A model generated the notes under the pieces. That model was not told where the DNA came from and searched no databases. It saw only the letters and a list, made by a program, of their open reading frames with translations. DNA of 62,098 nt from an uncultured bacterium (GTDB lineage Bacteria > Verrucomicrobiota > Kiritimatiellia > PWTM01), in assembly GCA_900661335.1 (NCBI GenBank), contig CAACVY010000005.1, positions 1 through 62,098 of the forward strand. The letters run 5' to 3'. Both the position numbers and the translations under genes were made by a program. This document shows, one piece after another, positions 9,425 through 12,136 of this stretch (position 1 is the first letter of the stretch; every line of letters starts with the position of its first letter).

Positions 9425-9769
9425 CTACCTCGGTGGTTCGGTTGGCCGATGGCATGGTAGGAAGGCGACGCACCTACGGGCGAGTCCTACGGTCGGTGGC
9501 GAAGCTTTTCGATGTGCCAATTTGCCTAGGTCGAGTGTGGGCCGCGCGAGTGGTCACAAGCCGGAGGGAGATGCATTGTACAGGGTAACCTGGTGCAATC
9601 GCGGACCCCGGCCTGTCGGGCTTGCGAATTAGCATCTGGCAGTTCATGCGCCGTATTTTCCGCAGTAGAGGAAGGTTCGTCGCCCAGCTTTCATGGAGGG
9701 ACCGGTGGACCGCTCTCGCTCGACCCGTTGGAAAAGGTCATCTATCGTAACTCGTAGGACATTGCTCAG

Positions 9770-10621
9770 ATGGTGCAACCGTTGGCGACTTCGGAGTTCG
9801 CAGTGCTGGCTTGGCGCCACTGGTACCGCTGGTGTACGGCGTCGCGCTGTACCCCGTCCGAACAGGCGTTCTTGCGCGGATTCATCGCCCGTCGCTGGTA
9901 TCGCTGGGTTCAAAAACTTGGTTGGGATGCGGCAGGAATCCGCCTCCCCTCGGACGAAGAACTTTGGCACCGATTCGAGGCACACTTGCTGGTCGGGTCC
10001 TCCCGCACTCGGCGGGTCTACAAACGGTGGCTGTTTGCGCGGGCCGTGGGGCAAAGCGGGGCGACCTGGCAGGCCACGATCGAGGCAGGTGCGACGCTCA
10101 TTCTCCGTGACGTCGTGCGCCAATGGTACCGGGACGAGCAACCGCGTCGCGATCATGTTTCCCTCGACGCCCCATTGCCTGACTGTCCAAACTTGACCTT
10201 GGCGGACCTGCTGGGCGGCTCGGCGAGCCTCGAGGACGAACTAGACGCGGATCAAGTCGAACGATGGGCTAGGGGCTTTGCCCGGCGCCATTTTGAGCGA
10301 GCCAGCCGGCCGGCACGGGTGGGATTACTATTGCGCGCTCTGAATCGGCCCCTGTACGGTCCGCAAGCAGAACGTATGGCGGGGTGTGGCAAGACCAAGC
10401 TCCACGGCGACTTGCAGAAATTTGTGCGCAGTCTTGCGGCGGACGTCCAGAAAGAATTGGCTTCGGAGAACCACCCAATGGCGTTGCAAGTGGCGATGAG
10501 AGCCCTGGCCTTGGCGAGAGAGATGGCCGTGGACTGGGCCCGCGCGGAAAAATTGGCGCCGATGTTCTTTCTAGTACTGGAAGGGGCCGGCGGAAGGGCC
10601 CGCGGGAGAACGGAACGGTGA
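9770..10621 (+). CDS. Hypothetical protein, divergent sigma70/ECF-like
   Basis: LRDVVRQWYRDE and VSLDAPL...LTLADLL resemble sigma regions 2.4-3; C-terminal helix-turn-helix-like segment; stop overlaps next start (GTGA). Confidence 0.6.
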   Translation: MVQPLATSEFAVLAWRHWYRWCTASRCTPSEQAFLRGFIARRWYRWVQKLGWDAAGIRLPSDEELWHRFEAHLLVGSSRTRRVYKRWLFARAVGQSGATWQATIEAGATLILRDVVRQWYRDEQPRRDHVSLDAPLPDCPNLTLADLLGGSASLEDELDADQVERWARGFARRHFERASRPARVGLLLRALNRPLYGPQAERMAGCGKTKLHGDLQKFVRSLAADVQKELASENHPMALQVAMRALALAREMAVDWARAEKLAPMFFLVLEGAGGRARGRTER

Positions 10622-11349
10622 AGGAACAGTTGGACATGTGGAGCCGGCGGTTGGCCGAATGGCTGGACGAATGGAGGCTGTATCGGGCTCTAGGCGCTGA
10701 GGATGATGAAACCGGACGCCGGGAAGTACCGGTACCGCGCACGGTGCGCATCCGGACTTTGCGCGTACGAGACATCGTTCTCTTGGATCCTAGGATCGCC
10801 CCCTCAGGGGCGCGAGCGCTGTTTCTAGTAATTCTGGACTCTCGCGAGTGTGAAGTTCATGCGGCTCCGTTTGGTCCGCTGAGTTTGCCCGGGCTCAGCG
10901 GCGAACTTGCATTGCCAGAACGACCCGTGCCATTGCGCGTACTGTGCCTCTGGAATGCGCGATGGCTGGATGCAGCGCGGGTGGGCCAGGGTTGGAAATG
11001 CGGGCGTCTTTCCGCTGTAGAATACCGAGGGGCGCGGACGGTGTGGGAGGCATGGCATGAAGGACGCTTGCCGCCAAAGCCGTGGATTGAGCTTGTCGGC
11101 CCCCCCTTGATCCATCCGGACGATCCCCGACGTGAGTACGAACAGGCCGAAGCCGACCTGATGGATACGGTAGCGACAAGTGAAAGACTGCACAGCACCT
11201 GTGCGGAAACTTCTCTTCCCTACCAAATTGCCCCAAGCATGAGTCTTCTCGCCGCGGAAGGGAAGCGAAGTTCTCAGCCACGCGACTTGGAGCCCGCGCC
11301 GCCCATGACCCAACGCAGGGTGCGTTATCGGATACGGAAACGCAAGTAA
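10618..11349 (+). CDS. Hypothetical protein coupled to the sigma-like gene
   Basis: GTG 10618 overlaps the upstream TGA; 243-codon ORF with RVLCLWNA and GPPLIHPDDPRREY motifs. Confidence 0.7.
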   Translation: MKEQLDMWSRRLAEWLDEWRLYRALGAEDDETGRREVPVPRTVRIRTLRVRDIVLLDPRIAPSGARALFLVILDSRECEVHAAPFGPLSLPGLSGELALPERPVPLRVLCLWNARWLDAARVGQGWKCGRLSAVEYRGARTVWEAWHEGRLPPKPWIELVGPPLIHPDDPRREYEQAEADLMDTVATSERLHSTCAETSLPYQIAPSMSLLAAEGKRSSQPRDLEPAPPMTQRRVRYRIRKRK

Positions 11350-11872: not shown

Positions 11873-12136
11873 GCAAGAGGGCTCGCATCAAACGACTACA
11901 ATCCCTACGAGCGCCTCATCCGCGAGACCAGGCCGACAATCCCGTCGTGCCCTTTCCGCTACTGAATGAAGTACCGCGATGTGGGTCTTGAGATCTTCTG
12001 CTACGGCTACCGCTGGTACGACGCGGCGTCGCTGAAGTGGCTCACGCCCGACCCCATCGGCGGGCGTGGCGGCGCTCCAAACCATCCCTGGCTTGTCAAA
12101 CGGCTAGAGTTTAGTTCGTCCCCTCAAGCCCGGTAG
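11873..12136 (+). pseudogene. RHS repeat-associated core fragment
   Basis: Frame +2 reads NDYNPYERLIRET..CPFRY*MKYRDVGLEIFCYGYRWYDAASLKWLTPDPIG; in-frame TGA at 11963-11965; no start or upstream RHS repeats. Confidence 0.8.

Follow-up and report, generated by a model that had tools for sequence, protein, structure and literature searches.

We analysed a 62,098-nucleotide stretch of DNA (contig CAACVY010000005.1, hereafter called the window) from an uncultured bacterium of the Kiritimatiellia, and focused on two genes in it, here called gene 1 and gene 2, which are predicted to encode a divergent sigma-like protein and a partner with the fold of MazF/PemK toxins. In the window's list of open reading frames (ORFs), gene 1 starts with ATG and encodes 283 amino acids, while gene 2 starts with GTG, lies on the same strand and encodes 243 amino acids (Table 1). 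The bases at their junction read GTGA, so that the GTG start of gene 2 lies over the TGA stop of gene 1 with 4 nt in common; the sequence GGGAGA is found ∼10 nt 5' of the GTG start. An earlier description of the window, made from the letters alone and called here the sequence-only reading, had noted this overlap, and both the overlap and all peptide strings it quoted are present in the DNA and its translations. It had also found no motif assignable to a named family. In agreement with this, neither protein gave a match in Pfam, NCBIfam or PADLOC at E ≤ 10, and searches of the PDB sequences with single sequences and with family profiles returned chance-level matches only for either protein.

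Table 1 Features of the gene 1/gene 2 locus (positions are those of the window)
Feature	Position	Strand	Basis or remark
Promoter-like CTCGAC-N18-TATCGT, ∼20 nt before gene 1 start	9719..9748	+	Conserved in 8 relatives; putative function
Gene 1, divergent sigma-70/ECF-like protein, 283 aa	9770..10621	+	AlphaFold2 model, hhalign, Foldseek
Atypical, sigma2-like helical domain at the N-terminus of gene 1 (residues 1-128)	9770..10153	+	Alignment A2
Gene 1 sigma region 4-like helix-turn-helix, residues 150-234	10217..10471	+	hhalign P 2.4e-6
Gene 1 C-terminal two-helix extension, residues 235-283	10472..10618	+	AlphaFold2 helices 235-260 and 264-275
GTGA start/stop overlap (translational coupling)	10618..10621	+	NTGA overlap in 22/37 loci
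Gene 2, predicted MazF/PemK-fold partner, 243 aa	10618..11349	+	AlphaFold2 model, Foldseek vs PDB, hhalign vs PemK toxins
Gene 2 N-terminal long helix, residues 2-29	10621..10704	+	pLDDT 84-95
MazF-like beta-barrel core of gene 2 (residues ∼46-149), with invariant LRVLCxWN	10753..11064	+	Model, hhalign, conservation
Gene 2 GPPLIHPDDPR motif, residues 161-171	11098..11130	+	Invariant G161, P167, D169, R171
Gene 2 L-A-A-E, residues 211-214, in the low-confidence tail	11248..11259	+	Candidate cleavage site and latent LAA degron

Gene 2 belongs to a large family. A word search found 45 homologues; when searched exhaustively with a profile, the family grew to 999 cluster representatives (50% identity), of which 569 lie below E 1e-30. 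Those homologues that carry source names are all labelled 'hypothetical' and stem from metagenome-assembled genomes (MAGs) of Lentisphaerae, Kiritimatiellia and Verrucomicrobiota. Gene 1 is more divergent and gave only 5 matches in the word search. In the neighbourhood survey that the sequence-only reading had suggested as a check, a hidden Markov model built from these five matches was used to scan the DNA 5' of the gene 2 homologues. Wherever upstream DNA was available (43 loci), it placed a gene 1 homologue directly 5' of gene 2 in the same orientation; just two loci had none, and both of these sequences begin inside gene 2. Most of the loci without the 4-nt NTGA overlap (Table 1) show short overlaps or gaps. 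The window's own genome (a 2.6-Mb MAG, 68% complete) holds one copy of the pair. Within an even sample of the phylum it occurs in 39 of 301 genomes and in 31 of 148 genera, nearly always as a single copy.

Comparison with the closest relative, which has the same synteny (L103), gave dN/dS values of 0.23 (gene 1) and 0.30 (gene 2). Both genes are real rather than chance ORFs and are under purifying selection. The pairwise protein distances of gene 1 and gene 2 correlate with r = 0.71, compared with 0.56 and 0.45 for each of them against the adjacent ssb, the gene for single-stranded DNA-binding protein (SSB), where one is present. Controlling for ssb, the partial correlation is 0.62, a value reached by 0 of 2000 permutations; since ssb is short and slowly evolving, it controls only in part for shared history. 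The pair is strictly linked, single-copy, vertically inherited and restricted to Kiritimatiellia, Lentisphaerae and Verrucomicrobiota.

Profile comparisons relate gene 1 to sigma factors of the extracytoplasmic function (ECF) type. An alignment of 41 gene 1 sequences (A2) was compared by hhalign with 24 ECF sigma factors, drawn from the genome of the window itself, from three others in its genus and from one more in its class. The local alignment (probability 91%, P 9e-7, 123 columns) spans region 2.3/2.4, the linker and region 4 in the correct order, and the global alignment reached a probability of 94% and P 2e-8, compared with P > 0.2 throughout for cross, reversed and shuffled controls. 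Residues 150-234 alone matched ECF region 4 with a probability of 89% and P 2.4e-6 over 57 columns, whereas residues 1-128 alone matched region 2 with P 0.067 over 14 columns, the aligned part being the GKxYKxWLFAR / '..W..rIA' stretch only. Because region 4 is significant by itself and residues 1-128 are not, we regard the sigma4 helix-turn-helix as established from the profile comparison and a sigma2-like N-terminal domain as plausible. The order of sigma70 regions inferred in the sequence-only reading thus held for the whole profile and for region 4, the region 2 half taken alone being non-significant. No ECF region was matched by the C-terminal extension in hhalign.

The AlphaFold2 model of gene 1 is all-helical, with a predicted local distance difference test (pLDDT) score of 85. 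In Foldseek searches against the PDB, sigma factors came out on top (SigA of M. smegmatis, T. thermophilus and T. aquaticus, with E. coli sigma-E lower in the list), and the top named matches in BFVD were phage sigma factors. The scores were non-significant in both databases (E 0.02-5, global template modelling (TM) score ∼0.2); a low global TM score is to be expected for a flexible two-domain protein. The curated sigma models TIGR02937 and Pfam Sigma70_r2/r4 matched 0 of the 41 gene 1 family members at E ≤ 10, and a TIGR02937 scan of the window's own genome recovered 10 sigma genes, gene 1 not among them. The N-terminal domain is indeed atypical and rich in Trp and Cys, as had been noted, with W15, W18, C22, C27, E70, K85 and W87 invariant in alignment A2 and the motifs AWHxFExH, GKxYKxWLFAR and RDVVRxxxRxE. 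Residues 15-70 (window 9812-9979) hold the invariant W15, W18, C22, C27 and E70 together with a near-invariant H67. This W/C/H/E cluster may be a candidate metal or redox site, a feature that ordinary ECF sigma2 domains do not have.

For gene 2, an AlphaFold model built on 37 sequences (pLDDT 84, predicted TM score 0.73) consists of a helix (residues 2-29), a beta-barrel (∼52-130), two further helices (133-147 and 171-187) and a low-confidence tail from ∼190. All top 50 Foldseek matches in the PDB are MazF/PemK/EndoA toxins with a probability of ∼1.0, a target-normalised TM score of 0.65-0.73 and a root-mean-square deviation of ∼3-4 Å over ∼113 columns. With a profile of 25 genuine PemK toxins from related genomes, hhalign gave a colinear alignment of gene 2 (102-119 columns, P 1e-3 to 2e-3), compared with P 0.2-0.95 for reversed, column-shuffled and cross-family controls. 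Model and profile thus agree on the SH3-like barrel of MazF/PemK as the predicted fold, which the sequence-only reading had suspected from strand order and spacing. Of the two outcomes that it had named as refuting, neither was seen: structural matches of both kinds came up, those to sigma factors without significance, and the homologues occur as a pair. The PemK family model PF02452 found no match among 37 gene 2 family members at E ≤ 10, and a genome scan with it was silent at this locus.

The catalytic residues of B. subtilis MazF we take to be R25 (in 'RP') and T48. By the hhalign mapping, the column equivalent to R25 is variable in the gene 2 family (R, G and others), while at the column equivalent to T48, 94 of 174 members have G, 65 have S and 2 have T. 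As judged from these alignments, the MazF catalytic Arg and Thr positions are not conserved, and in functional terms gene 2 does not count as a PemK toxin. The family has invariant motifs of its own instead, LRVLCxWN and GPPLIHPDDPR, and HPxDPR is found in 171 of 177 members. In the N-terminal helix W15 is invariant and L12 and E18 are near-invariant, and this helix is a candidate for binding the sigma-like protein. Further conservation lies in the tail, where A212, A213 and E214 are at least 90% conserved at a pLDDT of ∼50. AA[ED] follows HPxDPR in 165 of 171 members, with the consensus [LW]-x-L-A-A-E-x-R-x-x-Y-G.

About 13% of the gene 2 representatives are long forms (315-344 aa) with an extra beta-rich domain of ∼90 residues straight after the LAAE motif. 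Examples of 320-344 aa, in which the domain follows LAAEP..YG, are P0012, P0022, P0026, P0074, P0085 and P0125, and the homologue P0013 (411 aa) carries a different, longer extension. Pfam, DUF2080 included, gave no match in the C-terminal domains of seven long forms.

To describe the context elsewhere, the ORFs flanking the pair were clustered across 39 non-redundant loci. The only recurrent neighbours are ssb (PF00436, 25 of 39 loci) and a gene for a weakly Whirly-like protein of ∼200 aa (20 of 39), whose similarity to PF08536 reaches 27.7 bits in L004, above the cutoff. Three arrangements occur: ssb and the Whirly-like gene running away from the pair on the opposite strand (whirly<-ssb<- ->gene1->gene2), both genes leading into it (ssb->whirly->gene1->gene2), or ssb following it (gene1->gene2->ssb). 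That the adjacency of ssb is kept through these rearrangements argues for a functional link to the pair. Genomes with the pair mostly have two ssb copies, one of which adjoins it, whereas four of six pair-negative genomes checked have one. In the window's lineage, the pair does not adjoin ssb and no Whirly-like gene was found in the window's family; in other classes, too, the pair occurs without ssb or Whirly-like neighbours.

Some details of these neighbours are recorded here in their own right. The Whirly-like family (∼200 aa) adjoins ssb and is very conserved, with 31 invariant columns in alignment A3; examples are L004:3996-4577(-), L018:4334-4921(+) and L044:3974-4555(-), and there are 16 others. 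It is found in 29 of the 301 genomes, 13 of them shared with the pair, all within the window's class. As 13 of the 39 pair-positive genomes carry this gene and 16 genomes without the pair do so as well, it was rejected as an obligatory third or fourth component. In L037 an insertion of 2.2 kb (L037:2840-5083) separates ssb from gene 1, compared with 65-400 nt in the other loci. The sole ssb found in the window's incomplete genome (C13:56181-56597, minus strand) lies directly behind an S6-like frame, which, by eye and unconfirmed by search, we take to be ribosomal protein S6 (rpsF). The idea that the pair replaces LexA and the SOS response was rejected because nearly every tested genome with the pair also has LexA-like genes.

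A literature search for MazF-like anti-sigma factors led to a single system, the CalpL-CalpT-CalpS cascade of type III CRISPR loci, known from Sulfurihydrogenibium and Ca. Cloacimonas acidaminovorans. In this system CalpS is an ECF-like sigma factor, and CalpT, which combines a MazF-like domain with DUF2080, is its anti-sigma factor. The SAVED-Lon protease CalpL, once activated by cyclic tetra-adenylate, cuts CalpT in a poorly structured linker, after LQLAA and before the next A, and the new LAA C-terminus serves as a degron. Only after degradation of the CalpT fragment does CalpS bind RNA polymerase, and growth arrest of E. coli follows.

By analogy with this system we lean, on balance and by a little, towards a cytoplasmic sigma/anti-sigma-type switch as the function of the pair. 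Gene 1 would be a highly divergent ECF-type sigma factor composed of a sigma2-like domain, a linker, the sigma4 helix-turn-helix and a C-terminal extension. Gene 2, produced in 1:1 coupling with it, would hold it inactive and probably bind it through the N-terminal helix and the barrel; in this scheme a MazF fold has lost its RNase residues and gained the N-terminal helix, the GPPLIHPDDPR loop and the disordered tail. A signal-dependent cut between the second A and the E of the near-invariant L-A-A-E would expose an ssrA-like LAA C-terminus, gene 2 would next be degraded by proteases of the ClpXP type, and the sigma factor, once free, would bind and redirect RNA polymerase. In most lineages the second ssb, with or without the Whirly-like gene, is a likely target or functional partner, and these neighbours point to a response connected with single-stranded or foreign DNA; the linkage to ssb would have been lost in the lineage of the window. 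What we infer here is the contact of the two proteins with each other and with RNA polymerase, as well as the cut at LAAE and the protease, signal and regulon involved.

Several results weigh against such a switch. On the side of gene 1 these are the non-significant Foldseek scores, the region 2 comparison and the silence of all curated sigma models. No protease or sensor gene is conserved beside the pair; this holds also for the long-form loci, which are flanked by unrelated genes of metabolism. A search for SAVED domains in 18 pair-positive genomes gave no match, though no positive control rang in it. Anti-sigma factors are usually poorly conserved, so that the unusually strong invariant motifs of gene 2 (LRVLCxWN and HPDDPR) hint at an additional or different activity, and in its LWNAR the residues N-A-R line up with Q-I-R of the motif in the MazF substrate groove. 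The promoter-like CTCGAC-N18-TATCGT is unique in the window's own genome, where no regulon is detectable, and no promoter motif common to gene 1 and ssb was found. Moreover, the sigma gene comes first here, the reverse of calpT-calpS, and the comparison with CalpT and CalpS, neither of which is among the PDB sequence matches, was made by description, not by sequence.

Given that region 4 alone is significant, gene 1 might instead not be a sigma factor but a DNA-binding regulator or DNA-metabolism protein with a sigma4-type helix-turn-helix on a novel N-terminal domain, acting with a nucleic-acid-binding gene 2, the second SSB and the Whirly-like protein in the handling of single-stranded DNA (ssDNA), for instance in replication restart, recombination or DNA uptake. 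The ssb adjacency kept in three arrangements, often together with a Whirly-like ssDNA-binding protein, would fit this idea, although the pair occurs without these neighbours in the window's family and in other classes. Likewise, the part of the MazF nucleic-acid groove motif retained by gene 2 and the enzyme-like conservation of motifs in both proteins would be in line with it. However, the full-length alignment with ECF sigma factors scores higher than region 4 alone (hhalign 49.8 compared with 32.5) and includes regions 2.3/2.4 and the linker in order, and over the full length both Foldseek lists are led by sigma factors rather than by other types of helix-turn-helix protein. We consider this explanation unlikely, though slightly less so than the next.

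More unlikely is a toxin-antitoxin-type module, with gene 2 as an active MazF-like endoribonuclease or CcdB-like poison that uses a non-canonical active site and gene 1 as antitoxin and autorepressor. The predicted MazF fold, the position of gene 2 behind its translationally coupled partner, where the toxin of a toxin-antitoxin pair usually lies, and a helix-turn-helix in the upstream partner all suit such a module, but the equivalents of R25 and T48 are not conserved and PF02452 misses gene 2. Very strongly conserved surface motifs and the alignment of NAR with the MazF QIR could speak for an unusual active site; a sigma-like 'antitoxin' of 283 aa, however, has no precedent among MazE, PemI and Kis, and in the one studied sigma/MazF-like pair the sigma factor is the growth-arresting component. 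Furthermore, the pair is single-copy and lies among housekeeping genes with conserved ssb synteny, whereas genuine PemK toxins in the related genomes are multi-copy and patchy.

Less probable again is a nucleic-acid-sensing switch, in which gene 2 would have kept the ancestral groove as a sensor of ssDNA or RNA rather than as a catalyst. Ligand binding or the cut at LAAE would then free a sigma factor of a hitherto unrecognised clade with a Cys/Trp-rich sigma2 domain, which would switch on a dedicated set for ssDNA handling, the second SSB and the Whirly-like protein. Bacteria of the Planctomycetes-Verrucomicrobia-Chlamydiae (PVC) group would thereby have a response of their own to ssDNA or foreign DNA that does not depend on LexA. 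The least likely explanation in our view is defence-type signalling like that of CalpL-T-S or Csx30/CASP-sigma, with an unlinked, phage-activated protease that cuts gene 2 and frees a growth-arresting sigma factor: the CalpT/CalpS-like architecture, the LAA in a disordered linker, the optional C-terminal domain and ssb and Whirly-like genes that could be anti-phage or phage-derived would agree with it, but PADLOC gave no match, no CRISPR, SAVED or Lon gene lies nearby, the SAVED search in 18 genomes, with the limit given above, was negative, and the pair is vertical, single-copy and set among housekeeping genes, not in defence islands.

At the locus itself, the 5' neighbour of the pair is an NPCBM/metallopeptidase-like gene on the opposite strand. 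Downstream follow, in order, an RHS-core remnant, a DksA/TraR-type zinc-finger gene, lspA and miaA. The remnant (ORF 11966-12136, YGYRWYD...WLTPDPIG) is an RHS/YD-repeat core and corresponds to the decayed RHS cassette mentioned in the sequence-only reading; a TEN_YD-shell fragment occupies the matching place in the syntenic relative L103 (L103:8879-9418).

CTCGAC, followed after 18-19 nt by TATCGT, TATGTT or TATTCT, heads the operon in L103, L001, L008, L010, L012 and L104-L106. A scan for sigma-70 consensus promoters and terminators called nothing on the plus strand around the operon, the CTCGAC element included. In genomes of the same genus and family, a gene for a two-transmembrane protein of ∼82 aa (MSGRVINFRLRPPKR...AKLWFRHLWHKRRH) lies directly 5' of gene 1 (L001:343-591, L008, L010/L108, L012 and L104-L107), where a TTGA stop/start overlap couples it to gene 1 in a three-gene operon; in these relatives the CTCGAC element precedes the gene for the membrane protein. 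This gene is present neither in the window nor in L103 and was not found in any other family.

The 5' region of the pair-adjacent ssb is also conserved. It contains the perfect palindrome TTTTCCGGAAAA, ∼11 nt further GTTTCCTTATG, then GGAACCATG and a GC-rich hairpin, followed by the ribosome-binding site (L004:5025-5185, L020, L023, L027, L031, L032, L041, L042, L044 and L006:6865-6892), and may be an operator and leader for this ssb copy. A paired k-mer enrichment 5' of gene 1 recovered mostly the start region of the divergent ssb. The element TTTTCCGGAAAA / GTTTCCTTATG was considered as an autoregulated ECF promoter shared by gene 1 and ssb and was rejected, as its orientation follows ssb and not gene 1 (L006); it was not found 5' of gene 1 in the window.

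The use of a MazF fold as anti-sigma factor rests so far on one CRISPR-associated system, CalpT/CalpS. The family described here is large (∼1000 clusters at 50% identity, ∼13% of the sampled genomes of the phylum) and unannotated, and its pairing is chromosomal, vertically inherited and free of a CRISPR or SAVED-Lon component. If the proposed mechanism is true, control of a sigma factor by a MazF-fold partner would be a general regulatory design rather than a curiosity among CRISPR accessories, and the sigma family would gain a clade that is invisible to every curated sigma model. It would also give an entry into gene regulation in Kiritimatiellia and Lentisphaerae, which has hardly been studied and may be linked to a second SSB and a bacterial protein of the Whirly type.

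Among known systems, the pair resembles MazEF, PemIK and Kis-Kid in the predicted SH3-like barrel of gene 2, whose strand order is colinear with PemK, and in the place of gene 2 as the downstream gene of an overlapping pair. It differs from them in that PF02452 is silent and the catalytic Arg and Thr are not conserved, in being single-copy and not mobile, and in the partner, which in 43 of 43 loci is the sigma-like protein and not an antitoxin of the MazE/AbrB or ribbon-helix-helix type. In streptococci, the very divergent alternative sigma factor ComX is associated with the specialised second SSB paralogue ssbB; ComX has no MazF-fold partner, and we take it as an analogy for the ssb linkage only, and as a lead.

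RpoE-RseA stands for the classical ECF sigma/anti-sigma pairs that are released by regulated proteolysis, and LexA 1-84, whose VAA degron is exposed by a first cut, follows the same latent-degron logic. As in the present pair, sigma factor and inhibitor are co-transcribed and translationally coupled in RpoE-RseA. RseA has a latent C-terminal VAA degron, which is exposed by the first cut and read by ClpXP. In contrast, gene 2 lacks class I to III anti-sigma domains, a zinc-binding HxxxCxxC motif and any transmembrane segment, and neither TIGR02937 nor the Pfam sigma models recognise gene 1. In the type III-E Craspase system, a protease-cleaved inhibitor, Csx30, holds an ECF-like sigma factor, CASP-sigma (RpoE), which by description is a likeness to the scheme proposed here; in the description used, Csx30 does not figure as a MazF-like protein. 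The Craspase system is linked to CRISPR, and none of its components is present here.

The closest likeness is that to CalpS/CalpT, where an ECF-like sigma factor likewise adjoins a partner with a MazF-like domain. CalpT acts as anti-sigma factor and not as RNase, and gene 2 also appears to have the MazF fold without the RNase residues. The conserved L-A-A in the predicted disordered segment after the fold is a candidate for the same cleavage and degron role, and the long forms of gene 2 have a further C-terminal domain after this segment. On the other hand, the N-terminal helix and the HPDDPR loop of gene 2 are additional, and the present pair is inherited vertically as a single chromosomal copy with linkage to ssb. 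DUF2080 (PF09853) was not found in 37 members of the gene 2 family and is absent from the window's own genome, a scan of 401 genomes found only a stand-alone 52-aa DUF2080 protein beside a transposase, and there is no Lon, SAVED or CRISPR gene among the conserved clusters and sampled neighbours of the pair. The new sigma/anti-sigma class considered in the sequence-only reading thus stands as a pair of a sigma-like and a MazF-fold protein, but not as a wholly new class, because CalpS/CalpT already shows such a pairing. Since DUF2080, CalpL and a CRISPR context were looked for and not found, we do not count the pair as a member of that CRISPR-associated family; it is best filed as one of the CalpS/CalpT kind, a sigma factor with a MazF-fold anti-sigma partner.

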